Source: a virus. From it: DNA of 44,108 nt. A program made the position numbers and the translations under genes. The notes below the pieces were generated by a model. That model had not been told where the DNA came from, searched no databases, and saw only the letters and a program-made list of their open reading frames with translations. The DNA lies in the UHGV virus genome UHGV-0106768; one strand, given 5' to 3'. Below are positions 11,459 to 30,239 of this stretch, one piece after another. Each line of letters begins with the position of its first letter. Position 1 is the stretch's first letter.

Positions 11459-12806
11459 ATACCAAAAATACTGTGTTGACTTTATTAAGTCTCATCCCGT
11501 ATCAGCACTCTTTTTGGATTGCGGACTTGGAAAGACGATCATTTCATTGACTGCAATATATGATCTAATGTTTGATGAGCTGAAGGTATTTAAAGTTCTT
11601 GTAATTGCCCCTCTAAGAGTGACAAATGTCTGGAAAGCGGAGGTTCAGAAATGGAGTCATCTGCAAGATGTTGATGTTGCGATAGTAGTCGGAACTGTAA
11701 AACAGCGGATTGCTGCGATTAACAGTAACGCTCTTGTTTACGCTGTCAACCGTGAAAATGTGAAGTGGCTCGTAGAGTATTACGAGAAAAACGGTCTTCG
11801 TTGGGATTTTGACATGATTGTCATTGACGAGCTGAGTTCCTTCAAAAACTACCAGTCACAGCGGTTCAAATGGTTGCGTAAGGTTCGGCCTTTCGTGAAG
11901 CGCTGGGTAGGCTTGACAGGTACGCCGACTTCCAACGGACTCATGGACTTATGGGCAGAGATCGGTATCCTTGACGGCGGTGAGAGGCTTGGACGATTTA
12001 TCGGGCGTTTCCGAGAGTCTTACTTCAAGCCTGCATCCATGAACCCAAGTACGGGTGTGGTGTTCTCATATACACCCCGTCCCGGTGCGGAGGAACAGAT
12101 ATATCAGAAGATCTCCGACATCACCATTTCTATGAAAGCACTGGACTATCTGGATATGCCTGAATGCGTGTATGTCAATCATGAGGTCGAGATGAATGCA
12201 GCGGAGCGAAAGCTCTACGATCAGTTGAAGCACGACCTCATTATCCCGCTTGAGGACGGCGACATTGATGCCGCCAACGCTGCATCGCTTTCCAATAAAC
12301 TGCTCCAGATGGCGAACGGCGCGGTCTATGATGAGAACAAGGAAACACGCACCATTCACAGCCGCAAGCTGGAGATGCTGGAAGACCTGATCGAATCGGC
12401 AAACGGACAACCTGTGCTGATCGGTTACTGGTTCAAGCATGACCGCACCCGAATTATAGAGCATCTGACCGCTTGTGGTTATGCTCCGAGGGATATTAAG
12501 GATTCCGACGATATCACTGACTGGAACGCCGGAAAGATCAGTGTTGCTCTGATACATCCGGCTTCGGCAGGACACGGACTGAATATCCAGTCCGGCGGTC
12601 ATATCCTGATCTGGTTTGGCCTGACATGGAGTCTGGAGCTGTATCAGCAGACCAATGCAAGACTCTGGCGGCAGGGGCAGCAGCACACTGTTACTATCCA
12701 TCACATCGTAACAAAAGACACAGTAGATGAAGATGTCCTGAAAGCTCTCGCTTCAAAGGACGTGACGCAGGAGAAGCTGATCGCAGCAGTCAAGGCAAGA
12801 TTGTAA
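11424..12806 (+). CDS. SNF2-family helicase
   Basis: Walker A-like LDCGLGKT, DEAD-like IVIDELSSFKN, motif III LTGTPTSNG, C-terminal helicase motifs; ATG 11424 with RBS. Confidence 0.8.
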   Translation: MENTLKRSQIHEYQKYCVDFIKSHPVSALFLDCGLGKTIISLTAIYDLMFDELKVFKVLVIAPLRVTNVWKAEVQKWSHLQDVDVAIVVGTVKQRIAAINSNALVYAVNRENVKWLVEYYEKNGLRWDFDMIVIDELSSFKNYQSQRFKWLRKVRPFVKRWVGLTGTPTSNGLMDLWAEIGILDGGERLGRFIGRFRESYFKPASMNPSTGVVFSYTPRPGAEEQIYQKISDITISMKALDYLDMPECVYVNHEVEMNAAERKLYDQLKHDLIIPLEDGDIDAANAASLSNKLLQMANGAVYDENKETRTIHSRKLEMLEDLIESANGQPVLIGYWFKHDRTRIIEHLTACGYAPRDIKDSDDITDWNAGKISVALIHPASAGHGLNIQSGGHILIWFGLTWSLELYQQTNARLWRQGQQHTVTIHHIVTKDTVDEDVLKALASKDVTQEKLIAAVKARL

Positions 12807-12902
12807 CAATATACAGTCTGTATGATCCACCCCTTATTGACGACAGGAAGACGGCAAAGCGGCGACAATTCGGTTACGCCGCAAACCACGGAGGTGAAAA
12901 CT

Positions 12903-13388
12903 ATGGCTCGTAAGAACAAACGCCTAAAAACAGAATACCACAGAGGGCTCGGCTTTGATCCGAGAAAATATATTACGGCACCGGTGCAGCACCACACCAT
13001 CGCTCACAAGCCGCAGCGCGGTGACATCTGGTTTGCGGATCTTGGCTGTCATCCGGATTCCAGCGTGCAGAGCGGCATCCGTCCGGTTATCATTCTCTCG
13101 AATGATATGGGCAATGCACACGCCGACACGGTCAATATCATTCCCATGACGCGGCATCTGAAAAAGCCGGAGCTGCCGTGCCATACGCATCTGTTCCCCG
13201 ACAGTATTTCCGATCTTCATCAGCATCTATATCCGTCCATGATCCTGGCGGAGCAGCTCACGACTGTCAGCAAGCATGCGCTTCGCAGCTATGCCGGACA
13301 TATCTCGGACGCCGATGCGATGAACCGTATTGAAACCGCTGTCATTGCACAGCTTTTCATTGAAAGGAGACATTCCGAATGCCTGTAA
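12903..13388 (+). CDS. MazF/PemK-like endoribonuclease-fold protein with ~38-aa basic N-terminal extension
   Basis: RGDIWFADLG...GIRPVIILSND...VNIIPMT pattern; GGAGGTGA RBS 5 nt upstream of ATG 12903. Confidence 0.65.
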   Translation: MARKNKRLKTEYHRGLGFDPRKYITAPVQHHTIAHKPQRGDIWFADLGCHPDSSVQSGIRPVIILSNDMGNAHADTVNIIPMTRHLKKPELPCHTHLFPDSISDLHQHLYPSMILAEQLTTVSKHALRSYAGHISDADAMNRIETAVIAQLFIERRHSECL

Positions 13389-15808: not shown

Positions 15809-15846
15809 AAGTAGACTTTTCTCCGTATTTGCGCTGTTTTCCGCAG

Positions 15847-15936
15847 TTGGGGCAACGTGGGGCAAGTTTTTTCGGTGGTTATTATTATTACTTCTCTTTA
15901 TATATATTACTATTTTTACTTGCCCCTACTTGCCCC
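15847..15936. repeat. putative replication origin: two GGGGCAA repeats, AT-rich spacer, two inverted TTGCCCC repeats
   Basis: GGGGCAAG at 15859-15866 is the exact reverse complement of CTTGCCCC at 15919-15926 and 15929-15936; ~50 bp of >85% AT between; further CCTTGCC/GGCAAGG inverted pair at 16021-16076. Confidence 0.5.
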
Positions 15937-16114
15937 AAATAAATAAAAACAATAGAAAAGATAAGAAGAATAGAGGATTTTCACTGATTTGAACCATTAC
16001 CCATTTTGCACTGTTTTGAACCTTGCCCGATGCTGTCACTGACAAAGAGTGTGTAAGCGACAAAGCGTGGCAAGGTCAAAATCCAACGATCAATCATGCA
16101 GGAGGAACAAGAAT

Positions 16115-17209
16115 ATGAGAATCATCACTTCAGAACAGGTATCCGCAGGACACCCCGACAAGATCTGTGACCAGATCGCAGATGCTATCGTGACCGACTG
16201 CCTGCAGCATGACCACAACAGCCGTGTCGCCATCGAGTGCCTTTTCAAGAACCGCTTCCTTGTGATCGCCGGTGAACTGACCAGCACCCATGAGCCCGAC
16301 TACAAGGCACTGGTGCAGAGCGTGTTTGACCGCATCAACAACGGCGGAGCAGAGAGTACCGATGCAGGTTTTGATTACAAGCTGGATTTCACAGCCGATG
16401 ATCTGGACATTGCGATTCTGGTCGATCACCAGAGTAGCGACATTGCCCTCGGTGTGAATACCGGCGGTGCAGGAGATCAGGGTATGATGTACGGCTATGC
16501 GACCAACGAAACGCCGGAGATGCTCCCGATCCCCTTCGTGCTGGCTACCAGATTTCTGGAACTGCTGAAAGCCTACCCCTGCCGTATGCTGAAAGCCGAC
16601 GCAAAGGCACAGGTCAGCTATGACTATGACAGCGGTCGCATTACCACCTTCCTCTGCTCGGTGCAGCATACACACGATGTGGATGTTGAGGACTTCAAGC
16701 CCATCATCGAAAAGCTGATGGTGAGAACGGCAACCGAATACGGGCTGAATACAGACTTTGCAAAGCTCGTCAACCCGACCGGCAGATTTGTCATAGGCAG
16801 TTCCTTTGCGGACTGCGGCGTTACCGGACGCAAGCTCGCCTGCGATACCTATGGCGGTATCGGGCATATCGGCGGCGGTGCAATGTCCGGCAAAGATCCG
16901 TCTAAGGTTGACCGCAGCGGCGCATATGCAGCAAGAAAAATCGCAAGGGATATCGTCAGTGCCGGATATGCGGATATGGCAGAGGTGCAGATCGCATATG
17001 CCATCGGCGTGGCAGAACCCGTATCCGTGTATGTGGAAACCTTCGGCACGGAGCATCAGGATACGGAGTTCATCAGCCAGTATGTCCGTGAGAACTACGA
17101 CCTGACACCGAGAGGTATCATTGAAGGACTGCATTTGCTGGATGTGGACTACAACGCTGTTTCCGCATACGGACACTTCGGAAAACAGAACCTTCCGTGG
17201 GAACTATAA
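16115..17209 (+). CDS. metK: S-adenosylmethionine synthetase (MetK)
   Basis: SEQVSAGHPDKICDQIADAI N-terminus, GAGDQGMMYGYA and GGGAMSGKDPSKVDRSGAYAARKIA motifs; CAGGAGGA RBS. Confidence 0.85.
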   Translation: MRIITSEQVSAGHPDKICDQIADAIVTDCLQHDHNSRVAIECLFKNRFLVIAGELTSTHEPDYKALVQSVFDRINNGGAESTDAGFDYKLDFTADDLDIAILVDHQSSDIALGVNTGGAGDQGMMYGYATNETPEMLPIPFVLATRFLELLKAYPCRMLKADAKAQVSYDYDSGRITTFLCSVQHTHDVDVEDFKPIIEKLMVRTATEYGLNTDFAKLVNPTGRFVIGSSFADCGVTGRKLACDTYGGIGHIGGGAMSGKDPSKVDRSGAYAARKIARDIVSAGYADMAEVQIAYAIGVAEPVSVYVETFGTEHQDTEFISQYVRENYDLTPRGIIEGLHLLDVDYNAVSAYGHFGKQNLPWEL

Positions 17210-17236
17210 TAAATTTTTTGAAATTTTTTTTTGATT

Positions 17237-17280
17237 GGATACCCACAAAATGCCCTCTCCCACGACAGTATATGAGGGGC
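17237..17280. repeat. conserved ~45-bp element, copy 2
   Basis: GGATACCCACAAAATGCCCTCTCCCACGACAGTATATGAGGGGC; matches 3398..3442 with stem-preserving differences. Confidence 0.6.
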
Positions 17281-17360
17281 GTTGCTCAGACCGAACAACA
17301 CATCATTTGCGGGGCTGACCGTCCCTCACCAAATATCAACACAGGAAGGAGGCAGAGACA

Positions 17361-17720
17361 ATGCCGAGCAGACCAAAGACACCATGCCGTCACCCCGGCT
17401 GTGCGGCGCTCGTACCCTACGGTGCGAAGTACTGCGGCAAGCACCGTTCTCTCCATCCGGAGGATACACGCTCCGCAGGCAGTCGAGGCTATGGCACCGC
17501 ATGGAACAAGGCCCGCAAGCGTTACCTTGAGACGCATCCGCTGTGTGTGGAGTGCATGAAGCAAGGACGCTACGTCAAGGCGACCGATGTGGATCACATC
17601 ATGCCGCACCGAGGAGACAATGTTCTCTTCTGGGATCAGAGCAACTGGCAGAGCCTCTGCCACCGACACCACAGCATCAAAACCAGAAACGAGGATCACA
17701 CCCCTGAGTACAAGTACTGA
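17361..17720 (+). CDS. HNH endonuclease
   Basis: CxxC...CxxC plus VDHIMPH...N.Q.LCH..H..K motif; AGGAAGGAGG RBS. Confidence 0.8.
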   Translation: MPSRPKTPCRHPGCAALVPYGAKYCGKHRSLHPEDTRSAGSRGYGTAWNKARKRYLETHPLCVECMKQGRYVKATDVDHIMPHRGDNVLFWDQSNWQSLCHRHHSIKTRNEDHTPEYKY

Positions 17721-18177
17721 CTGCGGCTCACCAACTTACTCTGCGATTCAGACTCGGCTCAGGGGTGTACCTATGGGCGGGGCTGGGGGCTGGGGCTGCC
17801 CGCCGGGGCGGGTTCATTTCTCTGTGTGAAAGCGAACACAAGACCGTCGGCCCCTCTCGTGTGAAAAAACGCGAATTTGCAAGGGCCCCGGTCATTTGGG
17901 ACACTGACAGAGATATATTAGCTGTAAATGAAATACTGTGCAGAAAACAGAAAACGCAGATTTTTCGTGCTTTTCCATATGCTGCCGTAGGAAACTGCGG
18001 CCGCAGGATACATACAGAGTTTCGTTACAAAATGCACTGTAAAACGGCGAATTTACGTCAAAAAGCGATAGAATTAGCACATTTTTAGCGCCAAACCGCA
18101 TTTTACAGTTTTATTCTTGGCGGAGCCCGTGTGGATACCGAAAACCGCATAAAATCAGAAGTTTCGAGGTGAATCAG

Positions 18178-18471
18178 ATGACAGATTCTCAAAAATATCA
18201 AGTACGAATTATGCGGATGCAGGGCATTGGATATAAGGCAATAGCAAGGTCGCTGGGCTTGAAAACCAATCAGGTGCAGCTCTTTTGCAAGGCTCACGGT
18301 CTTGCAGGAGACAATCATCTGGTCGATGTCAACTATCAAATCTGGTGTCAGCAAAACAACCGCTGTCCGGTCTGCGGTGCAAAAATCGATCAGCCGAGAA
18401 TCGGACGCAGGAAGAGATTCTGCTCCGGTCGGTGCAGAACGAAATACTGCCGTGAGCAGAAAGGAGAATGA
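18178..18471 (+). CDS. small HTH / zinc-ribbon protein
   Basis: ATG 18178 with GAGGTGA RBS (ORF track starts at GTG 18169); CPVCG...CSGRC. Confidence 0.5.
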   Translation: MTDSQKYQVRIMRMQGIGYKAIARSLGLKTNQVQLFCKAHGLAGDNHLVDVNYQIWCQQNNRCPVCGAKIDQPRIGRRKRFCSGRCRTKYCREQKGE

Positions 18472-18473
18472 GA

Positions 18474-18647
18474 ATGCTTGTAACAGTTTTATGCCTTACC
18501 TACATGATGATCATTATCCTGATCCATGCGATCTGGATCAGCTCAATCATCAAGCATGACGGCAAATGCCACTTTGGTAACTGCAGCCGCTGTCCGTATG
18601 ACGGCTATTGCCCGATGCAGGAAGGAGATACACATGGAGACAAGTAA
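18474..18647 (+). CDS. small hydrophobic (membrane) protein with Cys-rich tail
   Basis: 57-aa ORF below the ORF-track cutoff; AGGAGA RBS 6 nt upstream; LVTVLCLTYMMIIILIHAIWISSII hydrophobic stretch. Confidence 0.35.
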   Translation: MLVTVLCLTYMMIIILIHAIWISSIIKHDGKCHFGNCSRCPYDGYCPMQEGDTHGDK

Positions 18648-18915
18648 TGGCAGCAGAGTAGCAGGTGCGGTAATCGCGCCGAAGGCAAATGATGAAATCA
18701 ACCATCCCTCACACTATACCGCCGGCAGCATTGAGGTCATCGACTTCCTCGAAGCATGGGACTTCCCTTTCCATCTGGCGAACGCGATCAAATATATCTG
18801 CCGCGCAGGGCGGAAAGATAAGAACGCTCTCGTCACCGATCTGAAGAAGGCAGTGTGGTATATCAACCGCTACATCGATTATGTTGAGAAGGGTGGCAAG
18901 GAGGGCAAGGCATGA
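18634..18915 (+). CDS. DUF3310-like phage protein
   Basis: ATG 18634 with GGAAGGAG RBS; NHPSHY...GSIEVIDF...NAIKYI.RAG.KD pattern. Confidence 0.5.
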   Translation: METSNGSRVAGAVIAPKANDEINHPSHYTAGSIEVIDFLEAWDFPFHLANAIKYICRAGRKDKNALVTDLKKAVWYINRYIDYVEKGGKEGKA

Positions 18916-19397
18916 CGCTGACTGAGAACTTCATTCAGAATGCCATCCATCTCGATGCGGGTGCGGAGGTCATGTACGGCAGCGATCAGATGTACGACAC
19001 CTACCCTTGCCGTTTTCCGGCTGTGGAGTTTCAACTTATGGCAACGGATGCTCTTGTTGAGGTTGCAGACCGCATCCGCATGGAGAAGGGCTACCTTCCG
19101 ATGCATCCGAGAGACGGCAAGACAGACGATGTGGACTGCGATGGTTTCTATGATTTTTATGTCGGGATTTCAAAGCTCCCCGGCGACCATCAGCAGTGCC
19201 AGCTTGACAGCAGCATCAGCTTTATGGTTGTCAATTCGGATTCGGATGACAACGAGGATATGTACAATATCGACTTGACAGAAGCAGAACGGGAATATGT
19301 GTATGAGATACTGAACCGACAGTGCCGGAGGTATCACGGCAAGGACTGCGCCGAACTTCTGGCAGAGTCTGAAAAGGAGCTGATGGATACAGCATGA
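18912..19397 (+). CDS. hypothetical protein
   Basis: 161-aa ORF overlapping the upstream stop (ATGA); RBS GGAGGG. Confidence 0.5.
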   Translation: MTLTENFIQNAIHLDAGAEVMYGSDQMYDTYPCRFPAVEFQLMATDALVEVADRIRMEKGYLPMHPRDGKTDDVDCDGFYDFYVGISKLPGDHQQCQLDSSISFMVVNSDSDDNEDMYNIDLTEAEREYVYEILNRQCRRYHGKDCAELLAESEKELMDTA

Positions 19398-21541
19398 GAA
19401 TTATCAAGCGAAACGGCGCAGAGGTGCCGTATGACTGTGAAAAGATCAGAGCCGCAATTACTGCGGCAAACGATGAGATGGATTCCGGCGACAGGATCAC
19501 AGATACAGTAATCGGCTTTATTGCTGGTAATGTAGAAAAGCGATGTGAGGCACTTGCAAGGCCTGTCCATGTCGAAGAAGTCCAGGACATGGTTCTTGAT
19601 GAACTGGACAGGGCCGAAGCGTACAAACTTGCACGGCACTACAGCGAGTACCGCCTGCGTCATGAACAGCAGCGCCGGATGAACACAACGGACGGCAAGA
19701 TTCTCAGTCTCCTTGAGAGGAACAACGAGGAGGCAAAACAGGAGAACGCCAACAAGAACCCGATCATCAACAGCACGCTCCGTGACTATATGGCGGGGGA
19801 GGTCAGCCGAGACATCTGCCGCCGATTCCTGTTTCCCGAAGATGTAATCGCTGCCCACGATGACGGCATCATTCATGTACACGATCTGGACTACATCGCA
19901 GAGCCGATGCATAACTGCTGTCTGGTGAATCTGGAGGATATGCTTCAGAACGGCACAGTGGTATCCGGTACTATAATTGAGAAGCCGCACAGCTTTTCGA
20001 CTGCCTGCAATATCGCAACGCAGATCATTGCACAGGTCGCCTCGAATCAGTACGGTGGACAGACCGTCAGCCTTGCACATCTTGCACCTTTCGTGGATGT
20101 GAGCAGAAAAAAGATCCGCACCGAGGTGTTCGAGGATGTGAACTGCGACTGCGGTGCAAAGCTGTCTGAAAAAGAACTGGACTACATCGTAGAAAAGCGT
20201 GTGCGACGGGAGGTCAAGCGTGGCGTGCAGACGATACAGTATCAGATCAACACGCTGCTCACTACCAACGGACAGACGCCGTTCGTCACAGTGTTTATGT
20301 ATCTTGATGAAGTGCCGGAGGGACAGACCCGTGATGACCTTGCGCTCATCATCGAGGAAACACTGCTTCAGCGTATCGAGGGTGTGAAAAACGAAAAGGG
20401 CATCTGGATCACACCGGCATTTCCGAAGCTGATCTATGTTCTTGATGAGGATAACATTCAGCCCGGTTCCAAGTATTACTATCTCACCGAGCTTGCCGCC
20501 AAGTGTACTGCAAAGCGCATGGTTCCCGACTATATTTCCGCAAAGGTGATGAAACGTCTGAAGGGTGATGTGTATGCCTGCATGGGCTGCCGATCTTTCC
20601 TGACACCTTCGGATGACCACAAATACTACGGGCGATTCAATCAGGGAGTCATCACGATCAACCTTGTGGATGTTGCGTGTAGCGCAGGCGGAGACGAAGA
20701 TAAATGCTGGCAGCTTCTTGATGAACGCTGCGAACTGTGCCGCAAAGCGCTTGTGTGTCGGCATGACCGCCTGAAAGGGACACCGTCCGATGTTGCACCA
20801 ATCCTCTGGCAGTATGGCGCACTTGCGAGACTGAAGAACGGCGAGGTCATTGACGATCTGCTGTATAACAACTACAGCACGATCTCGCTCGGCTATGCCG
20901 GCATCGCGGAAATGACCTATCACATGACAGGCCGTTCGCATACAGAGCCAGAAGGAAAAGCGTTTGCACTGAAGGTCATGCGATTCCTGAACGATAAGTG
21001 CAGCAAATGGAGAGCTGAAAGCAATATCTCGTTCTCGCTGTACGGCACGCCGATGGAGAGCGTCACCTACAAATTTGCACAATGTTTGCAGCGCAGACAC
21101 GGCATCATTCCTCATGTGACCGACAAGAGCTATATCACCAACAGCTATCATGTCCATGTGACTGAGCCGATCGATGCCTTCAGCAAGCTAATTTTTGAGG
21201 CAGAGTTTCAGGAGCTTTCTCCGGGCGGTGCGATCAGTTATGTGGAAGTACCGAATCTGCAAAACAATATCCCTGCAGTGCTGGTGCTCATGAGACACAT
21301 CTACGAAACGATTCTGTACGCCGAACTGAATACCAAGTCCGATTACTGTCAGGCTTGCGGCTATGACGGCGAGATCGGGATCGTGGAAGAAGACGGCAAG
21401 CTGATCTGGGAATGTCCGAACTGCGGCAACCGCGATCAGCGAACACTGAATGTCTGCCGCCGCACCTGCGGTTACCTCGGAACGCAGTTCTGGAATCAGG
21501 GACGCACTGCTGAGATCAAGGATCGGGTGATGCACCTGTGA
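19394..21541 (+). CDS. nrdD: anaerobic ribonucleoside-triphosphate reductase (class III, NrdD)
   Basis: 715 aa; C-terminal zinc ribbon (CQACG...CPNCG) and glycyl-radical motif RTCGYLG. Confidence 0.85.
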   Translation: MRIIKRNGAEVPYDCEKIRAAITAANDEMDSGDRITDTVIGFIAGNVEKRCEALARPVHVEEVQDMVLDELDRAEAYKLARHYSEYRLRHEQQRRMNTTDGKILSLLERNNEEAKQENANKNPIINSTLRDYMAGEVSRDICRRFLFPEDVIAAHDDGIIHVHDLDYIAEPMHNCCLVNLEDMLQNGTVVSGTIIEKPHSFSTACNIATQIIAQVASNQYGGQTVSLAHLAPFVDVSRKKIRTEVFEDVNCDCGAKLSEKELDYIVEKRVRREVKRGVQTIQYQINTLLTTNGQTPFVTVFMYLDEVPEGQTRDDLALIIEETLLQRIEGVKNEKGIWITPAFPKLIYVLDEDNIQPGSKYYYLTELAAKCTAKRMVPDYISAKVMKRLKGDVYACMGCRSFLTPSDDHKYYGRFNQGVITINLVDVACSAGGDEDKCWQLLDERCELCRKALVCRHDRLKGTPSDVAPILWQYGALARLKNGEVIDDLLYNNYSTISLGYAGIAEMTYHMTGRSHTEPEGKAFALKVMRFLNDKCSKWRAESNISFSLYGTPMESVTYKFAQCLQRRHGIIPHVTDKSYITNSYHVHVTEPIDAFSKLIFEAEFQELSPGGAISYVEVPNLQNNIPAVLVLMRHIYETILYAELNTKSDYCQACGYDGEIGIVEEDGKLIWECPNCGNRDQRTLNVCRRTCGYLGTQFWNQGRTAEIKDRVMHL

Positions 21542-22005
21542 ATTACTGCGGACTGAATAAAAACGATATCGCCAACGGCGAAGGTGTCCGTGTATCGCTG
21601 TTTGTATCCGGATGCCGGAATCAATGCAAGGGCTGTCACAACCCAGAGGCATGGGATTTCAGCTATGGACAGCCCTTCACAAAAGAAACTGAAGATGAGA
21701 TCATCGAAGCCCTGCGTCCTTCTTGGATACAGGGCATTTCCATACTCGGTGGTGAACCCTGTGAGCCGGAAAATGAAAAAACACTCCTGCCTCTGCTGAA
21801 AAAGATCTGGTGGGAGATGCCAGAAAAAGATATCTGGCTGTACAGCGGATACACTTACGAGCAGTTGCAAGGCAGAGCCATACTTCGGTATGTGGATGTT
21901 CTGGTTGACGGGCCGTTCCTAATCGACCAGAAGGATATCTCCCTTGCATTTCGAGGCAGTCGGAATCAACGGATCCTCCGATTAAGAAATGGGGTGCGGG
22001 TATGA
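21538..22005 (+). CDS. nrdG: anaerobic RNR activating protein (radical SAM, NrdG)
   Basis: CRNQCKGC radical-SAM cysteine motif near N-terminus; immediately downstream of and overlapping NrdD; GTG start. Confidence 0.75.
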   Translation: MNYCGLNKNDIANGEGVRVSLFVSGCRNQCKGCHNPEAWDFSYGQPFTKETEDEIIEALRPSWIQGISILGGEPCEPENEKTLLPLLKKIWWEMPEKDIWLYSGYTYEQLQGRAILRYVDVLVDGPFLIDQKDISLAFRGSRNQRILRLRNGVRV

Positions 22006-22319
22006 GAGCCAGACTGAAACCGCCGGGAGATGCCGTTCGCTGCGATGCCTGCGGATGTGCCTTTGTGCCGGAGCCGAAAATGCAGCGTGAGGGCGAGATC
22101 GAATACAGCTTCTTCAACTGTGATTACTGTGGCAAAGCGTATATCGTGTCTGTGACCGATGCCGCACTCCGCCGGAGCATCCGCAAGTACCGGACGCTTG
22201 CCGAAAAGCTGAAGGACAAGCCGCTGAGTGAAGAAACGCTCCGTGAAGTCACGGCGCTGAAGGATGCGAACACAAAAAGAGCCGCAGAGCTGCGGCAGAT
22301 GTATATACGGGAGGGATGA
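22002..22319 (+). CDS. zinc-ribbon hypothetical protein
   Basis: CDACGC...CDYCG; overlaps neighbours. Confidence 0.45.
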   Translation: MRARLKPPGDAVRCDACGCAFVPEPKMQREGEIEYSFFNCDYCGKAYIVSVTDAALRRSIRKYRTLAEKLKDKPLSEETLREVTALKDANTKRAAELRQMYIREG

Positions 22320-22320
22320 G

Positions 22321-23592
22321 ATGAAAACAGCAGAACTTCGCATGATCCCTGTCTCGGAACTGAAGCCTGCGGAATACAACCCGCGTAAAAAGCTGAAGCC
22401 CGGCGACAAGGAATACGAGAAGATCAAAAACAGCATCGAGGAATTCGGTTTTGCCGACCCTTTGGTAGTCAACGCCGATATGACCATCATCGGCGGACAT
22501 CAGAGACTGACCGTAGCGATGGCGCTCGGCTACACGGAAGTTCCGTGTGCGGTGGTAGACATCGACAAGGTTCGTGAGAAGGCACTGAACATCGCACTGA
22601 ACAAGATCACGGGTGCGTGGGACGAGAACCTTCTTGCTGAACTTCTGGAGGATATTCAGAACAGTGATTTCGATCTTGGCAAGACCGGCTTTGACCCGCC
22701 GGAGATCGAGCAGCTTTTCAATCAGGTACACGATAAGCAGGTCAAAGAGGACAGCTTCGATGTGGAGGAGGAGCTTCAGAAACCGACCTTCTCTCAGCCG
22801 GGAGATACCTGGATCCTCGGCAGGCACAGAGTCATCTGCGGCGACAGCACAGTTGCGGAGACATACACAAAGCTGATGGACGGACAGAAAGCAAATCTCG
22901 TCCTGACGGACCCGCCTTACAATGTGGATGTTGAGGAGACCGCCGGCAAGATCATGAACGATAACATGAGCGACAGCGATTTCTACAACTTCCTGCTTGC
23001 CGCCTATAAGTGTATGTATGACAGTCTTGCCGATGACGGCAGCATCTATGTATGGCACGCCGACACCGAGGGGCTGAATTTCAGAAAGGCATTCAAGGAC
23101 GCAGGATTCCAGCTTTCCGGCTGCTGTATCTGGAAGAAGAATTCGCTGGTGCTCGGGCGCAGTCCTTACCAGTGGATCCATGAACCGTGCCTGTTCGGCT
23201 GGAAGCAGAAGGGCAAGCATCAGTGGTACGCCGACCGCAAGCAGACGACCGTCTGGGAATACGACAAGCCGAAAAGCAGTCCCGATCATCCGACCACAAA
23301 GCCCATCCCGCTGATGGCGTACCCGATCAAGAACAGCACCATGACAAACGGCATCGTCCTCGATCCATTTCTCGGCTCTGGCTCTACGCTGATCGCCTGC
23401 TGTGAGACAGACCGTGTCTGCCGGGGCATCGAGCTTGACCCGAAGTTCGTGGATGTCATCGTGAAACGTTACCTCGCATGGTGTCAGGAGAAGCAGACCG
23501 CAGAGGTCGCATATGTTCTCCGTGACGGCCAGAAGCTGTCATACGAGGAAGCGATTGCAGTAATGCCGCAGGACGGTGATGCTGTTGAGTGA
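22321..23592 (+). CDS. ParB-like N-terminal domain fused to N6-adenine/N4-cytosine DNA methyltransferase
   Basis: ParB-N-like GGHQRL; MTase motif IV DPPY before motif I LDPFLGSGST (beta-class order); GGGAGGGA RBS. Confidence 0.8.
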   Translation: MKTAELRMIPVSELKPAEYNPRKKLKPGDKEYEKIKNSIEEFGFADPLVVNADMTIIGGHQRLTVAMALGYTEVPCAVVDIDKVREKALNIALNKITGAWDENLLAELLEDIQNSDFDLGKTGFDPPEIEQLFNQVHDKQVKEDSFDVEEELQKPTFSQPGDTWILGRHRVICGDSTVAETYTKLMDGQKANLVLTDPPYNVDVEETAGKIMNDNMSDSDFYNFLLAAYKCMYDSLADDGSIYVWHADTEGLNFRKAFKDAGFQLSGCCIWKKNSLVLGRSPYQWIHEPCLFGWKQKGKHQWYADRKQTTVWEYDKPKSSPDHPTTKPIPLMAYPIKNSTMTNGIVLDPFLGSGSTLIACCETDRVCRGIELDPKFVDVIVKRYLAWCQEKQTAEVAYVLRDGQKLSYEEAIAVMPQDGDAVE

Positions 23593-24352
23593 AGTAAAAT
23601 GCGTTCTCATACACGACAATTTCCAGAATTACAAGGGCTACAGCATTCCGAGGGCACAGCTCGTCATTGCGGATATCCCGTATAACATTGGCGGAGATTT
23701 TTACGCAAGTCGCCCGGACTGGTATGTGAATGGCGACAATCAGAACGGCGAAAGCAGCAAAGCGCACAAGGCGGCATTCCACACGGACTACTCTTTCAAC
23801 ATCGCTGAGTATTTCGCATTCTGCAACCGACTGCTCAAAAAGGAACCGTCCAAAGGTGAAAAGGATGCTCCCTGCATGATCATGTTCTGCGCCTTCCAGC
23901 AGATCCCGGAGGTCATCCGGCAGGCGGAGAAATAAGGCTTCAAGCACTACCAGTTTTTATGCTTTATGAAGAACTACAGTCCGCAGGTGCTGAAAGCAAA
24001 CATGAGGATCGTTGGTGCTACCGAATATGCGCTGGTGCTGTATCGGGGCAAGCTGCCGAAGTTCCGCAATACCGATGCGGACGGCAAGCGGCACATGATC
24101 TTCGACCATTTCGACTGGGTGCGGGACGGCAAAGATATCCCGAAGATACATCCAAGCCAGAAGCCGGTGAATCTGCTGAAGCGCCTGATTGGGATATTTA
24201 CCGATGAGGGCGATGTGGTCATCGACCCCTGTGCGGGTTCAGGAAGTACACTGAGAGCCGCAAGAGAAATGGGACGCAACAGCTACGGCTTTGAGGTCAG
24301 CAGGGATTTCTATACCAAAGCCCGTGAGCAGATGCTCGGAGGTGCGGAATGA
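23579..24352 (+). CDS. N6/N4 DNA methyltransferase interrupted by in-frame TAA at 23933-23935
   Basis: Motif IV DIPY upstream of the stop; HPSQKP and motif I IDPCAGSGST downstream; same frame, continuous protein-like read-through (AEK * GFKHYQFLCFMKN). Confidence 0.65.
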
Positions 24353-24594
24353 CGAAACAGGAATGTGCCATCGTGACAGCGTACACAGGGTTCGCTATGC
24401 TGAAGGGCAGCGACCTGAAATATCTGTACAATTATCTCTCCGGTCTCATCGGCAGGCCGGTGTATTCACACGAGATCCCTGCGGTCGCAGAAGCCTGCAA
24501 GGAACAAATACGAGAAGATTTCCTTGCCCTGTGCAGGAACGCAAAGGAGGCGGATGATGGATCATACAACAATGACGCTCGGCAGTCTGTTTGA
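24349..24594 (+). CDS. hypothetical small protein
   Basis: 81-aa ORF overlapping both MTase genes. Confidence 0.4.
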   Translation: MTKQECAIVTAYTGFAMLKGSDLKYLYNYLSGLIGRPVYSHEIPAVAEACKEQIREDFLALCRNAKEADDGSYNNDARQSV

Positions 24595-26848
24595 CGGCTC
24601 CGGGGGCTTTCCGCTTGGTGGCATCCTCGCAGGGATCGAGCCAAGGTGGAGCAGCGAAATTGAACCTTTTCCGGTGCTTGTCACGCACAAGCGGCTGCCG
24701 CAGGTGCAGCACTACGGTGATGTATCTACGCTGAACGGCGCAGAGCTTCCGCCGGTGGATATCATCACCTTAGGCAGTCCTTGTCAGGACCTGTCTATTG
24801 CGGGCAAGCGTGCCGGAATCCATGACGGTGATCGGTCGAACCTGTTCTTTCAGGCGATCCGCATCATCAAAGAAATGAGGGATGCAACAAATGGACGATA
24901 TCCGCGATACTGCGTCTGGGAAAATGTCCCCGGCGCTTTCTCATCCAACGGAGGAAACGACTTCAAGGCTGTCCTCGAAGCAGTTATCGGAGTTAAAGAA
25001 AAAGGGATCGAGGTGCCTGCGCCTGAAAATCACAGATGGGCAAAATCAGACGTATATCTGGGAGACGGATGGAGCGTGGCTTACCGAGTTTTCGATGCTC
25101 AATACTGGGGTGTCCCCCAACGCAGAGCAAGAATCTACCTTGTCGCAGATTTTGCTGGCGAAAGTGCCGGAGAAATACTATTTAAGTCCGAAGGCGTGTC
25201 TTGGTATACTCCGCAGGGCTTCCGTGCGTGGCAAGGAGCTGCCGGAGGTGCTGAAGAAGGCACTGGAGAAACAGGCGGGCGGTCTGACGCTGGAGGTGGA
25301 ACCCTCTGCCTGAATACACAGGGCAACAGCGGCGTCGGCATCACCGAGGACAAGGCTCTCGCACTGGTCGCACAGGATCACGGGAATCATCCTGCCGTTC
25401 TTGCCGCAGGTTTTTCCACAGAGCATAGTGCAAAAGCACGCAGCATCGGATACGAGGAGGAAGTCTCCCCGACACTGAGAGCAGGTGTTGTTCCTGCGGC
25501 ACTCTCGGTCGAAAACCATCCGACAGACGGTCGTGTGAAGATCCGTGAGGACGACACCTGCCAGACACTTTGCAGCAGAGCCGGGACGGGCGGCAACAAT
25601 GTACCGCTTGTCGCTGAACCGATCACGCTGAAAATCAGGTCAGGCTGCGAAGGCGGCGGCAAGGGCGCTCTCTGGCAAACTGATAAATCTGCTACGCTTG
25701 CTACCAACAACAACCAGACACTCTTTCAGCCAGAGATCAAAGCCTTCGGTGTATGTAGCAAGCATTCCAATGCGATGATGTCAGACAATCCGCACAGTGG
25801 CTTTTACGAAGCGACCACGAGCAGAACGCTTGACCAGAGCGGTGGAAACTCCGTAACATCGAATCAGGGCGGCATCTGCGTGGTAGCACCTGCGCCGGAG
25901 ACATTCGATGTGCGTTTCACATCGGACGGCACGAAAAATGCTCGTGGGCATTGTTACCCGACAGACATTTCCCGATGCCTTGATACGAGCGAGGGATCGC
26001 CAGACTCGAATCACGGCGGTGTCGCTGTGGTGGCTCTTGAACCGGGGGCTGCATCACGTGTCGGCGGTCATGTGTACAGTGACGGCAAAAGCGGTACGCT
26101 TCGAGCCAATGCCGGCGATAATCAGCAGGCTGTTGTGGTCGCCGAGCCGGAGACCTATGCTCTGCAAGGCTCGATGATCGGTCGTGCCGACAAGAACGGT
26201 CCGCAGGGTGACGGCATCAATGAGGATGTGTGCTTTACGCTCAATACTTCAGACAGGCACGCTATTGCCGCACCCGATCCGTCTTTCACGATTTCCCGTG
26301 ACAATCACTTCGCCGTTTCGGAAGATATATCTGTTACGGCAGTTGCGAGAGGTCCTGCAACGGTCGCAGCCCCGGCAGATCACTACTGCACAAGCAAGAA
26401 TTCACACCACACGGTCGCTGTGCATGAGCAGGCAAACACGCTGGTCGCATCCGACTGGAAGGATCCGCCGCTTGTGAACGACCTTCCGAATGACGAGCCG
26501 GTATATATCGTAAGAAGGCTGACTCCGGTGGAGTGCGCCAGATTGCAGGGATTCCCGGACTGGTGGTGTGCCGACCTTGCGATTCCTGATCCTTCTGACG
26601 AGGAGATCGCCTTCTGGATGGAAGTATGGGAAACTTGGAGACAGATCACAAATCCCAAGGGCAAACCGAAAACGGAAAAGCAGATCCGCAAATGGCTGGC
26701 TAATCCGTACACGGACAGTGCCGAGTACAAGTTATGGGGCAACGGTGTCTCAGAGCCCGTTGTGTTCTTCGTGCTATCCGGCATTGCCTGGGCGGCACAG
26801 AATTCTGAAACTAATGCAGCAAATTGTGAACATTCTGATACTATGTAA
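24557..26848 (+). CDS. DNA (cytosine-5) methyltransferase, unusually long, probably multispecific
   Basis: Motif I LFDGSGG, motif IV GSPCQDLS, motif VI ENVPG, C-terminal motif IX/X RRLTPVECARLQGFPDWW; ~450-aa variable region between catalytic and C-terminal motifs. Confidence 0.85.
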   Translation: MDHTTMTLGSLFDGSGGFPLGGILAGIEPRWSSEIEPFPVLVTHKRLPQVQHYGDVSTLNGAELPPVDIITLGSPCQDLSIAGKRAGIHDGDRSNLFFQAIRIIKEMRDATNGRYPRYCVWENVPGAFSSNGGNDFKAVLEAVIGVKEKGIEVPAPENHRWAKSDVYLGDGWSVAYRVFDAQYWGVPQRRARIYLVADFAGESAGEILFKSEGVSWYTPQGFRAWQGAAGGAEEGTGETGGRSDAGGGTLCLNTQGNSGVGITEDKALALVAQDHGNHPAVLAAGFSTEHSAKARSIGYEEEVSPTLRAGVVPAALSVENHPTDGRVKIREDDTCQTLCSRAGTGGNNVPLVAEPITLKIRSGCEGGGKGALWQTDKSATLATNNNQTLFQPEIKAFGVCSKHSNAMMSDNPHSGFYEATTSRTLDQSGGNSVTSNQGGICVVAPAPETFDVRFTSDGTKNARGHCYPTDISRCLDTSEGSPDSNHGGVAVVALEPGAASRVGGHVYSDGKSGTLRANAGDNQQAVVVAEPETYALQGSMIGRADKNGPQGDGINEDVCFTLNTSDRHAIAAPDPSFTISRDNHFAVSEDISVTAVARGPATVAAPADHYCTSKNSHHTVAVHEQANTLVASDWKDPPLVNDLPNDEPVYIVRRLTPVECARLQGFPDWWCADLAIPDPSDEEIAFWMEVWETWRQITNPKGKPKTEKQIRKWLANPYTDSAEYKLWGNGVSEPVVFFVLSGIAWAAQNSETNAANCEHSDTM

Positions 26849-27010: not shown

Positions 27011-28132
27011 ATGAAAACTTATGCAATGATCATTGGAAACCGCAAGGAACTCACAAAGAGAATCGAGGCACTCACCGGAGAGCGCAGCGTATACACCTTC
27101 ATGCCGAGATGCGCCTATGAGATCGGGGCATTCGCAGTCGAGAAGGACGGCACACTTACGGCACAGGACGATGCCGACCAGAGCGTGATCGACACCCTGA
27201 GAGCCGAGGGTATGATCGGTGGTGAGATCATCGCAGAGAGCATCAAGGCAGTCGAGCCGGAGCAGACCGATGAGACCGCAGAGCCGGAACAGCCTGCACC
27301 GCCCGTAAGCACCGATGAATGGGACGATGATGAGGATGACGACGATGAGAACAGCGTCGAGGGCGAGAATGCGGAAGCGGAAGAGCCGGAGGAGTCCGAA
27401 GAAAATGCCGATAAGTCGGAGCCTTCCGCAGAGCCAGAAGCCGCACCTCCTGCGACCGAGGATGCCTGGGATGATGAACCGGAGGATGAACCCGGCGACG
27501 AGCCGGAAGAAACCACCGAGCTTCCTGAACCGCTGACCGCAGAGATCAGCTTCCCGCTGAGCCATCACACGGTGCAGAGCCTTACAAACCTCATCTGCAT
27601 GATCCACTCCCGCGGCGCACTTCTCAGCAAGGCAACCGGCGGACAGTTTTACGCTGACAAGAGCCTCGCCGATGCGATCCTCGATGACAAGACCTTCCGC
27701 AGCATTCACGAGCTGATCGCCTACATCAGAGAATGGGAGGAGACGAATCCTGAACTGAAGGGCATCCGCTTCGCCGATGACAAGCTAATCTTTGACGGCT
27801 TCGGTGCAGCGCAGGATGCCGAAACGGTGCAGACCTTCACCAAGCTCGCCACAGCCATGAACAGGATGGCGATCACGCAGAAACGTGTGCAGGCAAAGGA
27901 TGTCGATGACAGCAACGAAAAGTACGCACTCCGCATCTGGCTGATCCGCCTTGGGCTGAACGGCGCAGACTGCAAGGTTGACCGCAAGCGCCTCATGGCT
28001 CCGCTTTCCGGACACACCGCATTCCGCAACGATGCGGAGCGTGTGCGCTGGGAGGCAAAGCAAAAGGCAAAGCGTGATGCTGCCAGAACCGAACTGACCG
28101 AGGAGGATGAAAACGATGCAGTTTCCGAATGA
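27011..28132 (+). CDS. acidic protein with amidoligase-like C-terminal module
   Basis: 373 aa; long D/E-rich tract (DEWDDDEDDDDENSVEGENAEAEEPEESEEN...); C-terminal ~70 aa align with the C-terminus of the 28562 amidoligase. Confidence 0.6.
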   Translation: MKTYAMIIGNRKELTKRIEALTGERSVYTFMPRCAYEIGAFAVEKDGTLTAQDDADQSVIDTLRAEGMIGGEIIAESIKAVEPEQTDETAEPEQPAPPVSTDEWDDDEDDDDENSVEGENAEAEEPEESEENADKSEPSAEPEAAPPATEDAWDDEPEDEPGDEPEETTELPEPLTAEISFPLSHHTVQSLTNLICMIHSRGALLSKATGGQFYADKSLADAILDDKTFRSIHELIAYIREWEETNPELKGIRFADDKLIFDGFGAAQDAETVQTFTKLATAMNRMAITQKRVQAKDVDDSNEKYALRIWLIRLGLNGADCKVDRKRLMAPLSGHTAFRNDAERVRWEAKQKAKRDAARTELTEEDENDAVSE

Positions 28133-28364
28133 AAGACAGCTCAGAGCCTTGCGGGAGCGTTATCCCGCAGGAACCCGCATCCGACTGAAGCATATGGATG
28201 ACCCTTATGCACCCGTACCGCCCGGCACGGTCGGAGAGGTTCAGATGGTCGATGACGGCGGCAACATACACATGGTCTGGGAGAATGGCAGAACGCTCTC
28301 CCTTATAGACGGTGTCGATGATTTCCAAGTCATTTCTGACCGCAATGGGGGCTCCGGAAAATAA
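28116..28364 (+). CDS. DUF4314-like small protein
   Basis: MQFPNERQLRALRERYPAGTRIRLKHMDDPYAPVPPGTVGEV...; GAGGAGGA RBS 9 nt upstream of ATG 28116. Confidence 0.5.
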   Translation: MQFPNERQLRALRERYPAGTRIRLKHMDDPYAPVPPGTVGEVQMVDDGGNIHMVWENGRTLSLIDGVDDFQVISDRNGGSGK

Positions 28365-28477
28365 GAGATCCTATTCCATTGTATCCGAGTATACCATAGA
28401 ATTTCAAGTATATCAAGTGTACACATACACCAGATATGAGCAATGTATTTTCCTCGATATTCTGTGGTTTTAGCGGC

Positions 28478-28506
28478 TTGCTATATCCTCCGAAAGACGG
28501 TAACAT
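28478..28506 (+). promoter_or_regulatory. promoter P2 (TTGCTA-17-TAACAT)
   Basis: Same architecture as P1; followed by conserved leader with GGGC-AAAC-GCCC hairpin. Confidence 0.6.
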
Positions 28507-28561
28507 GTGACACAACGGAAGGGCAAACGCCCACCGAAAAACCGAATCGGAGGATACCAAA

Positions 28562-29506
28562 ATGACTGAGAAAACCGCACAGCAGATCAACAGAATGAAG
28601 GAGCAGACCATCGGGGTTGAGATCGAGATGAACAACATCACCCGCAAGGCTGCCGCAAAGCTCGCCGCCAACTTCTTCGGCACCAGCCGCACCGAGTACA
28701 CCGCACACCGCAACGGCTACGAAACCTACAGCGCATGGGATGCACAGGGCAGAGAGTGGAAATTCCAGAAGGACGTCAGCATCGCAGGCCCCGACAGCGA
28801 AAAGTGCGAACTGGTCACACCGATCCTGCACTACGCAGACATCGAAACCCTGCAGGAGCTTGTGAGAAGGCTCAGAAAGGCAGGAGCGCGCAGTGATTAC
28901 ACGCGGGGATGTGGAGTCCACTGCCACATTGGAGCCCAGGGACACACACCGCAGACCTTGAGAAACCTCGCAAACCTGATGGCAAGCCACGAAACCCTGA
29001 TCGCCGAGGCAATCAGAGTAGACCAGAGCAGAATGCGCCGCTACTGCAGAACAGTTGACCCGAGATTCCTTGAACAGCTCAACCGCAAAAAGCCCACCAC
29101 GATGGCACAGCTTGCGGACATCTGGTACGGCGCACAGGGCTGCGAATACGGCAGAACCCACCACTACAACGACAGCCGCTATCACATGCTCAACCTCCAC
29201 GCTACCTTCACCAAAGGCACGGTCGAGTTCAGACTTTTCCAGTTCGCACCGCCTTCCAACGGCAAGCAGAACGGGCTCCACGCAGGCAAGCTCAAGAGCT
29301 ACATTCAGCTCTGCCTCGCAATGAGCCAGATGGCAAAGGACCTGCGGAGCGCCAGCCCCAAGGAACAGCAGAAGGAAAACAAAAAGTTCGCCATGCGGAC
29401 TTGGCTGATGAGAATGGGATTCATCGGGGACGAATTCGCAACCGCAAGGGAAACCCTCACCGAGAACCTTACAGGCGACAACAGCTTCCGCTTCGGCAGA
29501 CCTTAA
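28562..29506 (+). CDS. Amidoligase_2-family enzyme (glutamine-synthetase-like amidoligase)
   Basis: N-terminal IGVEIEMN motif characteristic of the family; 314 aa. Confidence 0.65.
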   Translation: MTEKTAQQINRMKEQTIGVEIEMNNITRKAAAKLAANFFGTSRTEYTAHRNGYETYSAWDAQGREWKFQKDVSIAGPDSEKCELVTPILHYADIETLQELVRRLRKAGARSDYTRGCGVHCHIGAQGHTPQTLRNLANLMASHETLIAEAIRVDQSRMRRYCRTVDPRFLEQLNRKKPTTMAQLADIWYGAQGCEYGRTHHYNDSRYHMLNLHATFTKGTVEFRLFQFAPPSNGKQNGLHAGKLKSYIQLCLAMSQMAKDLRSASPKEQQKENKKFAMRTWLMRMGFIGDEFATARETLTENLTGDNSFRFGRP

Positions 29507-29709
29507 AGCCTGCCCTGCGGGGCGGAAGAACAAGCGGAACGTCACGGCGGCGCACACAGCACCCTCATCGCCACGTGTGGGGCGGAAGGGTATCCTCCGA
29601 ACACATACCCAACTCAGTCAACCGAGCCACACAGCGCAAATGTAGGCAAGGCATAAAATGCACAACATACGGCACAGAATCGCCCTCGATGATCTGTTCA
29701 TTTACTCGC

Positions 29710-29738
29710 TTGATAATGCCGCCGAAAAGAGTTAACAT
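29710..29738 (+). promoter_or_regulatory. promoter P3 (TTGATA-17-TAACAT)
   Basis: 17-bp spacing; upstream of ATG 29778. Confidence 0.6.
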
Positions 29739-29777
29739 GGCACTACCGCAAGGAAAAAACGCAAAGGAGAACATAGC

Positions 29778-30239
29778 ATGAACAAGAAAAAATACTACAT
29801 AGCCTACGGCAGCAACCTCAACATCCGCCAGATGCGGTTCCGCTGCCCAGGCGCAAAGCCCATCGGCATTTCCGCGATTCCTGACTACGAACTGCTCTTC
29901 AAGAGCAGCAAGACGGGAGCGTACCTCACCATCGAGCCGAAGGACGGCGGGCTTGTTCCGGTCGCCGTGTGGGAAGTGACAGCCGACGATGAGAAGCACC
30001 TCGACATCTACGAGGGCTACCCGAACTTCTACTACAAAAAAGAAGTACGCCTGCCGATCAAGCTGGCAAACGGCAAGACCAAAAAGGTCACGGCATTTGT
30101 CTACATCATGCACGAGGAGCGTGAGATTGCGATCCCGTCAATGACCTACATCCGCACCTGCGAGGAAGGCTACCGCAACTTCGGATTTGATGTGAAGTAC
30201 CTTGACAGGGCATACATGAGAAGCACAAAGGAGGACTGA
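29778..30239 (+). CDS. gamma-glutamyl cyclotransferase-like (AIG2/GGCT family) protein
   Basis: N-terminal YIAYGSNLN motif and EGYP motif. Confidence 0.65.
   Translation: MNKKKYYIAYGSNLNIRQMRFRCPGAKPIGISAIPDYELLFKSSKTGAYLTIEPKDGGLVPVAVWEVTADDEKHLDIYEGYPNFYYKKEVRLPIKLANGKTKKVTAFVYIMHEEREIAIPSMTYIRTCEEGYRNFGFDVKYLDRAYMRSTKED

Follow-up and report, generated by a model that had tools for sequence, protein, structure and literature searches.

That phages can carry a gene for S-adenosylmethionine (SAM) synthetase, MetK, beside genes for orphan DNA methyltransferases (MTases), and that the enzyme may serve as their methyl-donor source, has been known for about ten years. In the homologous module of phage Phi1207.3, the SAM synthetase was proposed to provide the C5 methylase with its methyl donor (PMC4260502, 2014). 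Among 'Ca. Heliusvirales' genomes, 58.9% encode a SAM synthetase and 67% a C5-MTase, and the part of the study that deals with these genes reads the common DNA MTase as a countermeasure to restriction-modification (R-M) (de Jonge et al. 2024, PMC11283538). In a 2025 survey of gut viromes, dcm and metK account for 22.8% and 8.6%, respectively, of all phage auxiliary genes (PMC12180181). Two further systems are relevant here. Multispecific C5-MTases of Bacillus phages carry tandem target recognition domains (TRDs), each of which adds one recognition sequence (Wilke 1988 and Sethmann 1999, as summarized in PMC8936443), and the SAMase of phage T3 degrades SAM and inhibits host MetK, disabling Type I R-M and BREX, which require SAM (bioRxiv 10.1101/2023.02.27.530186; PMC11842806). 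Here we describe the metK gene of the virus genome UHGV-0106768, together with the MTase genes that follow it; the whole stretch of 44,108 nucleotides that was analyzed is referred to as the window.

The human gut metagenome contig ERZ1303852 NODE_435 in the European Nucleotide Archive (ENA) has the sequence of the window, position for position, and the Logan assembly of run ERR1190833 matches it with 100% identity over 16.4 kb. We consider it fairly probable, from gene content and comparative data, that MetK supplies SAM for self-methylation by orphan MTases encoded in a conserved DNA-metabolism and modification operon. As a recurrent, published feature of streptococcal prophages and 'Ca. Heliusvirales', the finding as stated adds little; what could matter is whether the phage MetK is required for full methylation and for restriction evasion.

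A complete metK gene and its downstream methyltransferases

The genes on which this reading depends lie on one strand:

16115..17209, + strand: MetK, SAM synthetase of a phage-type clade, 364 aa (Pfam, TIGR01034, phrog_1569)
22264..23592 (gene caller start 22321), + strand: ParB-N-fused beta-class amino-MTase (Pfam ParB_N and N6_N4_Mtase)
23576..24352, + strand: second beta-class amino-MTase (MT2), DIPY ... CAGSGS, disrupted
24554..26848, + strand: C5-cytosine MTase, 764 aa; catalytic core complete, variable region of 465 aa

The limits of the region singled out in a preliminary description of this DNA, 16115 and 26848, coincide exactly with gene boundaries. The metK gene starts with an ATG behind an AGGAGG site. 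Its product scores above cutoff for the N, M and C domains of the family (Pfam PF00438, PF02772 and PF02773), reaches 387.6 bits against the TIGR01034 equivalog model (cutoff 309.4) and 436 bits against phrog_1569, and aligns end to end with solved bacterial (E. coli) MetK structures at an E-value of about 1e-90, about 50% being alignable to the E. coli structures. The motifs GHPDK (aa 12), GAGDQG (aa 118), DCGVTGRK (aa 233) and GGGAMSGKD (aa 253) are intact, as is DAKAQV, and the loop that precedes GAGDQG is shorter than its E. coli counterpart by 5 aa. With domains, equivalog score and catalytic motifs all in place, the gene is complete, as the preliminary description held, and its product is a canonical SAM synthetase, predicted to catalyze the formation of SAM from methionine and ATP.

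A search of annotated phages found MetK homologs in 137 records; 90 of these are Streptococcus prophages, in which the protein already carries the annotation SAM synthetase. Phage-type MetKs of clostridial and streptococcal prophages show identities of 53-75%, and the prophage copies from Clostridium fessum, Oribacterium parvum and Streptococcus cristatus share 57-69% with the window protein. The MetKs encoded on the chromosomes of plausible hosts (Ruminococcus, Oscillospiraceae, Faecalibacterium, Acutalibacteraceae) reach only 42-47%. The phage MetK represents an old lineage that has been maintained within phages.

The first of the MTases combines a ParB_N domain (aa 24-104) with an N6_N4_Mtase domain (aa 211-400), and its DPPY motif (aa 216) stands ahead of FLGSGS (aa 369), the motif order of the beta class; both features bear out its earlier description as a ParB-N-fused beta-class MTase. 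Its closest solved relatives are DpnA-type adenine MTases, and it is probably an N6-adenine MTase. It is an orphan, having no partner endonuclease. The long C5-MTase that had been proposed likewise stands, with six motifs in canonical order over 24554-26848 (I, FxGxGG; IV, PCQ; VI, ENV; VIII, QxRxR; IX, RxLTxxExxRLQGF; X, GNG/A); in the PF00145 / TIGR00675 test, it scores 121.1 bits against the dcm model (cutoff 100.65). Copies that are 100% identical occur in several ENA and Logan assemblies.

Of the three MTases claimed in the preliminary description, these two are intact, and the 'second N6/N4 MTase' is cut by a stop codon. An in-frame TAA at 23933-23935 (codon 120 of MT2) falls between DIPY (motif IV, aa 33) and CAGSGS (motif I, aa 219), so that no uninterrupted open reading frame (ORF) holds both motifs. 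The position is Tyr in 49/49 relatives, and the TAA is also present in the second assembly (Logan, ERR1190833), which was made with a different assembler. In this genome, MT2 is a nonsense-disrupted gene. A second private stop lies elsewhere in the window, in the gene for the DUF2800 PD-(D/E)XK nuclease (4391-5638), a core replication/recombination gene, where an in-frame TGA at 5231-5233 replaces a codon that is Gly in 42/45 relatives. Stop-codon recoding was considered and rejected: the two codons differ, both are ordinary terminators in the window (TGA 24, TAA 13 and TAG 2), no suppressor tRNA accompanies them, and the relatives have sense codons.

Given fresh nonsense mutations in both MT2 and DUF2800, this copy of the genome may be partly defective. 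The module could then sit in a decaying or defective prophage, in which the 'SAM economy' that the preliminary description had seen here may no longer operate; the two private codons, one of them reproduced by a second assembler, speak for such decay. Every other gene is a full-length ORF, including those for MetK, the anaerobic ribonucleotide reductase NrdD and its activase NrdG, the two MTases, terminase, portal, protease and capsid. Moreover, MT2 is otherwise conserved (dN/dS 0.06), which makes the lesions recent. We regard decay of the module as quite unlikely.

Conservation of the module

IMG/VR contains 443 stretches that code for a relative of this MetK, and the counts given here and below come from 47 distinct MetK-positive contigs with at least 8 kb of downstream DNA. 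An MTase lies within 10 kb downstream of MetK in 45/47. The ParB-MTase is present in 45 of the 47, the C5-MTase in 33 and a second amino-MTase in 28, with all three found together in 24; NrdD/NrdG accompany MetK in 27 contigs and are missing from 20. In pairwise comparisons with relatives, dN/dS is lowest for the ParB-MTase (0.04), followed by MT2 and NrdD (0.06 each), MetK (0.07) and NrdG (0.09), and values of 0.04-0.09 indicate that the genes of the module are under strong purifying selection. An association between MetK and MTase number can be judged only from about four MetK-less relatives recovered through a neutral primase anchor, which are too few and not independent.

The pairing also recurs where MetK has diverged far from the window protein. 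In the Mycoplasmopsis phage vB_Mfe_PMF329 (MetK 33% identical, with a different genome layout) and in NatCom_35866 (41%), metK overlaps the start of a DNA MTase gene, and in Erysipelothrix phi1605 (41%) one small gene separates the two. Besides synteny and selection, this adjacency across very divergent MetKs is the strongest comparative argument for a link between MetK and methylation. By the IMG/VR counts, the arrangement in the window is a widespread one within a phage lineage of great abundance. Since a conserved same-strand module, recurrent adjacency and purifying selection coincide, a SAM supply for self-methylation directed against restriction is the most economical reading of these data. 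The preliminary description had put forward the same strategy of self-supplied SAM and self-methylation, and it is partly supported, by comparison, on these three grounds; it has to be qualified in that the coupling is not obligatory and only two of the MTases are intact.

In the mechanism that we propose, the operon would be expressed after the replication genes, starting behind an AT-rich, iteron-bearing spacer. MetK would make SAM from methionine and ATP, raising or buffering the pool at peak methyl demand, and NrdD/NrdG would independently provide deoxynucleoside triphosphates without oxygen in an anaerobic host. The ParB-N amino-MTase and the many-module C5-MTase would methylate newly replicated phage DNA before packaging, and the methylated progeny DNA would survive Type II-like restriction in the next host. 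This scheme presupposes enzymatic activity of the encoded proteins, a limiting SAM pool during infection, multispecificity of the C5-MTase and a protective effect of methylation against restriction.

Genes between MetK and the methyltransferases

The remaining genes of the module are:

17361..17720, + strand: HNH endonuclease, 119 aa (phrog_144 E = 4e-36, Pfam HNH, ENA gene call, synteny)
17765..18088, + strand: small conserved ORF with no assigned function
18169..18471, + strand: small conserved ORF, zinc-ribbon-like (phrog_2308)
18526..18915, + strand: DUF3310 protein (Pfam PF11753 E = 6e-17; phrog_236)
18912..19397, + strand: conserved acidic ORF of 161 aa, without a family match
19394..21541, + strand: NrdD, class III anaerobic ribonucleotide reductase (Pfam NRDD E = 1e-189; NF006732 890 bits, cutoff 657)
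21538..22005, + strand: NrdG, radical-SAM activase of NrdD (TIGR02491 179.7 bits, cutoff 126.1; Pfam Fer4_12)
22002..22319, + strand: small Cys-rich ORF (phrog_1315) that bridges NrdG and the ParB-MTase
24349..24594, + strand: DUF7736 small protein between the MTases (Pfam PF24875 E = 5e-17; gene call)

From DUF3310 through the C5-MTase, overlaps of 4 nt link the genes, all on the same strand, into a chain. The NrdG assignment was confirmed by the TIGR02491 score and by the cluster motif CRNQCKGC (CxxxCxxC, aa 26). The enzyme that it activates, which the preliminary description left unmentioned, is a full NrdD with an ATP-cone, a C-terminal Zn ribbon (CQAC...CPNC) and an RTCGY glycyl-radical site; the two genes share a 4-nt overlap, and together they have all the features of a class III ribonucleotide reductase (RNR). 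The 161-aa ORF lies directly 5' of NrdD in every NrdD-positive relative and is translationally coupled to it by a 4-nt overlap, and it may be an RNR accessory factor. In some close relatives (L017, L023, L024 and L025), NrdD is broken at aa 174/175 by an insert of ~880 bp, putatively an intein or a group I intron with a homing endonuclease, which is absent from the window NrdD. The DUF3310 domain occurs in phage 'nucleotide kinase' PHROGs. MetK and HNH are also paired in Phi1207.3 and NatCom_34192; an ORF at 17197-17559 that might have been taken for the partner of MetK is a spurious alternative frame, the real gene being the HNH gene at 17361-17720.

The variable region of the C5-methyltransferase

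Motifs VIII and IX of the C5-MTase are 465 aa apart (nt 25118-26512); in ordinary enzymes this distance is about 100-200 aa. Homologs that share more than 82% identity with the window enzyme range in length from 719 to 866 aa, and long C5-MTases of 600-765 aa are found in about 20 NatCom genomes. In an alignment of phage homologs, blocks of 35-45 aa are gained and lost like cassettes. When the variable region alone was searched against 1.84 billion representatives, 3,413 matches were returned (1,391 at E <= 1e-10), typically with 2-9 separate stretches each. The ends of these stretches, taken as breakpoints in 150 homologs, cluster at residues 52, 94, 127, 167, 206, 258, 304, 343, 387 and 455, and divide the region into modules M1-M11. 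Nine of the modules, M2-M10, are 33-68 aa long and each has its own T-L dipeptide (C-L in M7), a conserved element of C5-MTase TRDs that includes Thr250 of M.HhaI. Differing subsets of modules are carried by 13 complete enzymes, M9 being present in 13/13. M9 resembles the block before motif IX in the multispecific M.SPbetaI (E = 3e-4) and in the normal-sized Orf33 of Phi1207.3. In a profile self-comparison of the variable region with hhalign, the similarity between modules was only weak (P 0.003-0.02), short of a proof of internal repeats. The architecture points to about nine TRD-like modules that are shuffled among homologs, and to a putatively highly multispecific enzyme.

This modular region is the one mildly new point of the locus. 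The searched literature contained no experimental test of MetK-MTase coupling and no description of a modular C5-MTase family in these gut phages. With thousands of members and a cassette-like turnover of TRDs between proteins more than 82% identical, the family offers a good system in which to study the adaptation of temperate gut phages to changing restriction, and a possible source of new methylation specificities. A stronger version, in which most of the roughly nine modules would be active, the enzyme would methylate at least five unrelated motifs, more than any characterized multispecific MTase, and the resulting demand would be the selective reason for keeping an ancient, phage-owned MetK, strikes us as doubtful but conceivable. 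Under such hyper-multispecificity, hundreds of sites per genome multiplied by the burst size would bring methyl demand to the order of the SAM pool of the cell, roughly 1e5 molecules as estimated from published E. coli concentrations. Were it true, the turnover of modules between near-identical phages would amount to rapid tracking of the restriction repertoire of gut hosts.

Site usage was counted over the whole window. The palindromes GGCC (28 observed/180 expected), CGCG (52/162), ACGT (37/110), CTAG (2/28), AAGCTT (1/22) and CCATGG (0/12) are avoided, as is CCWGG, strongly. No avoidance is seen for GATC (300/315), AGCT or TCGA, and sites of the type GCNGC are abundant; these unavoided sites are compatible with protection of some sites by methylation. 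The avoidance of GGCC deserves mention because M9 resembles a block of M.SPbetaI, which is specific for GGCC/GCNGC.

The spacer upstream of metK and the possibility of lysogenic conversion

A single non-coding element separates metK from the primase gene:

15809..16114, no strand assigned: non-coding primase-MetK spacer of 306 bp with origin-like or regulatory repeats

The spacer holds two copies of TGGGGCAA at a 10-nt phase, a 50-nt AT-rich core, two inverted copies of TACTTGCCCC, and tandem pairs of 27 nt and 18 nt. All relatives keep a gap of 280-1000 bp at this place, with an AT core of 80-90%, and the iteron words are found mostly where the D5 primase is at least 89% identical, which suggests that initiator and iterons co-evolve. 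The spacer is probably the starting point of the MetK...MTase transcription unit, a replication origin, or both. Neither a SAM riboswitch nor any other Rfam family was found here at gathering threshold (a chance miRNA match, E = 0.65, was the only hit). A consensus scan revealed no convincing sigma-70 promoter or terminator bracketing metK, with counts equal to the shuffled expectation; the scan is to that extent uninformative as to whether metK forms a moron-like cassette.

These features bear on the main rival explanation, in which MetK is a lysogenic conversion gene: expressed from the prophage, it would alter host physiology (autoinducer 2, polyamines, envelope, aggregation, biofilm) to the benefit of the lysogen, and its proximity to MTases would be historical. 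The spacer before MetK could hold a promoter of its own, the window has a lysogeny-type regulator region with helix-turn-helix (HTH) and weak ImmA/IrrE matches, and metK is among the commonest 'auxiliary metabolic genes' of gut phages. Furthermore, deletion of the homologous prophage metK, or of the relB-metK region, in Streptococcus agalactiae (group B Streptococcus, GBS; prophage 12/111phiA) lowered flocculation, chain length, glycocalyx and biofilm, and a plasmid-borne metK partly restored them; this complementation was, however, incomplete and confounded by secondary mutations (PMC8223999). The position of MetK speaks against conversion, within the replication and modification block and on the same strand rather than at a prophage end like a moron, as do the absence of a convincing promoter or terminator around it and the recurrence of MetK-MTase adjacency or overlap among divergent MetKs. 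On balance, we judge lysogenic conversion to be unlikely, although a serious contender.

Assessment of a proposed SAM supply for DNA methylation

Several observations count against SAM supply for self-methylation as the role of MetK. The MTases number only one in 8/47 MetK-positive contigs, and none lies within 10 kb in 2/47; the MetK-less relatives L097 and L102 retain their MTases, and a Microcystis jumbo phage has MetK among its replication genes with no annotated MTase nearby. NrdG, listed in the preliminary description among the SAM users, consumes about one SAM per activation event in its radical-SAM chemistry. Because it uses SAM only to activate NrdD, its demand is negligible and cannot drive a need for MetK. 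The genes that would complete a 'SAM economy' by recycling S-adenosylhomocysteine (SAH), namely Pfs, AhcY and LuxS, are absent from the window. The two private nonsense codons suggest relaxed selection on this copy, and the strong avoidance of GGCC, CGCG, ACGT, CTAG and CCWGG shows that the phage or its host lineage also uses site avoidance, so that methylation is no blanket shield. Finally, the only genetics on a homologous prophage metK, that of GBS 12/111phiA, gave aggregation and biofilm phenotypes, phage protection being outside its scope (PMC8223999).

Some of these points would fit a general cofactor booster that is not tied specifically to DNA methylation: MetK would aid replication in a starved anaerobe by way of NrdG activation, polyamines for packaging, or the methylation of RNA and proteins. 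MetK shares one block with NrdDG and the kinase-like DUF3310, NrdG is a radical-SAM enzyme, the Microcystis phage places MetK by replication genes away from any MTase, and MTases persist where MetK is lost. Set against this, NrdDG is missing from 20/47 MetK-positive relatives when an MTase is present in 45/47, NrdG is a trivial SAM sink, and the window contains neither polyamine genes nor genes for SAH recycling. We consider a general booster rather improbable.

The preliminary description further suggested resistance to SAM-dependent host defenses, and here the logic runs in the wrong direction. The idea would be that extra SAM neutralizes immunity that uses SAM (Type I/III R-M, BREX and others), for which only the general fact that several defenses use SAM can be adduced. 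Type I R-M and BREX depend on SAM, and phages that counter them destroy it or block its synthesis: the T3 SAM lyase does the opposite of MetK, degrading SAM and inhibiting the host synthetase, and more SAM should favor such defenses. The searched literature gave no defense described as acting by SAM depletion. A role of this kind is highly improbable.

Gene content of the window and additional observations

The window is predicted to belong to a temperate-type siphophage of the 'Ca. Heliusvirales' / Phi1207.3 type; the label temperate derives from gene content, on a contig without host flank whose 7x coverage is known from its name only. Its host is probably a gut anaerobe of the Oscillospiraceae or Ruminococcus. 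Early genes encode HTH/ImmA-like regulators, a sigma-like factor, the DUF2800 PD-(D/E)XK nuclease, an Enc34-type single-stranded DNA-binding protein (SSB) and a family-A DNA polymerase (PolA), and DUF932, VRR-NUC, an SNF2 helicase, a MazF-like protein and a D5-type primase also lie 5' of the module. On its 3' side, the rest of the window is taken up by an amidoligase/GGACT cluster, TerS, TerL (which contains an intein), portal, ClpP protease, HK97 capsid and, up to the last position, head-tail genes. The replication and packaging set of 'Ca. Heliusvirales' / Phi1207.3-like phages is thus present in its order (DUF2800 nuclease, SSB, PolA, SNF2 helicase, D5 primase, TerS, TerL, portal, ClpP, HK97 capsid), and in megablast and tblastn searches of annotated phages the nearest records are human-gut 'Ca. 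Heliusvirales' (NatCom genomes) and related streptococcal prophages. The placement relies on this gene set and these nearest records, not on the formal TerL-phylogeny criterion of the Heliusvirales paper. Minus-strand ORFs at 28481-34904 and 42309-43946 were discarded, having no family support; the real genes there are on the plus strand.

The cluster directly 3' of the MTases (27011-30239) is kept in many relatives:

within 27011..30239: 373-aa protein (phrog_2443, 'amidoligase' N-part) and DUF4314
28562..29506: Amidoligase_2
29778..30239: gamma-glutamyl cyclotransferase-like GGACT protein

It could constitute a peptide- or amide-ligating modification system. Further downstream, TerL (35466-38132, 888 aa) has a LAGLIDADG homing-endonuclease domain (aa 303-370) ahead of its ATPase domain, which indicates an intein; the TerL of Erysipelothrix phi1605 is likewise annotated as intein-containing. 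The family-A DNA polymerase (6328-9213) is also enlarged, at 961 aa versus ~650 aa in Phi1207.3 and NatCom genomes, and Pfam covers only aa 683-813. Its residues 324-453 resemble an insert that splits an NrdD-like gene in L053 and L054 (about 4082-4492 and 12569-12979), suggesting that the two inserts are a shared intein-type element. Between the SNF2 helicase and the primase, a 188-aa protein with a MazF/PemK-like toxin domain is encoded at 12822-13388, and no obvious partner antitoxin was noticed; the equivalent site of NatCom_34192 holds a 'MazF-like growth inhibitor'.

Comparison with known systems

The SAM lyases of the T3/T7 group resemble the window MetK in being phage enzymes that act on the SAM pool of a host where R-M and BREX are at play. 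The resemblance ends there, since the SAMase destroys SAM and MetK would make it for the phage's own MTases, and the proteins share no homology. The window protein is a canonical SAM synthetase, and not an anti-defense enzyme of the SAMase type, by which SAM is degraded or its synthesis inhibited.

The C5-MTase is closest in architecture to M.SPRI, M.Phi3TI, M.Rho11sI, M.H2I, M.SPbetaI/mtbP and M.(phi)BssHII, all of which join one catalytic core to several short TRDs in tandem between motifs VIII and IX. They differ in scale: M.SPbetaI has a variable region of ~180 aa in a total of 443 aa, whereas that of the window enzyme spans 465 aa and those of its relatives up to about 580-700 aa. For the genomes nearest to the window, the part of the 'Ca. 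Heliusvirales' study that covers these genes counts MetK and Dcm among the 'auxiliary metabolic genes' of Cys/Met metabolism, and analyzes neither their linkage nor the modular C5-MTase (PMC11283538).

The closest described module is that of Phi1207.3 (orf29, SAM synthetase; orf30, HNH; orf32, ParB-domain methylase; orf33, C5 methylase), and the same families recur in the related streptococcal Javan, phiD12 and 12/111phiA prophages. Phi1207.3 and NatCom_34192 share the order found in the window, from primase/helicase through MetK, HNH, ParB-MTase and C5-MTase to TerS/TerL/portal/ClpP/capsid, and the MetK of Phi1207.3 is 57% identical to that of the window. What the window has in addition to the Phi1207.3 genes is NrdD/NrdG, the disrupted MT2 as a third MTase, DUF3310 and DUF7736, and its probable host is a gut Clostridia anaerobe instead of a streptococcus. 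Its C5-MTase measures 764 aa against 388 aa in Phi1207.3, a difference accounted for by the expanded variable region.

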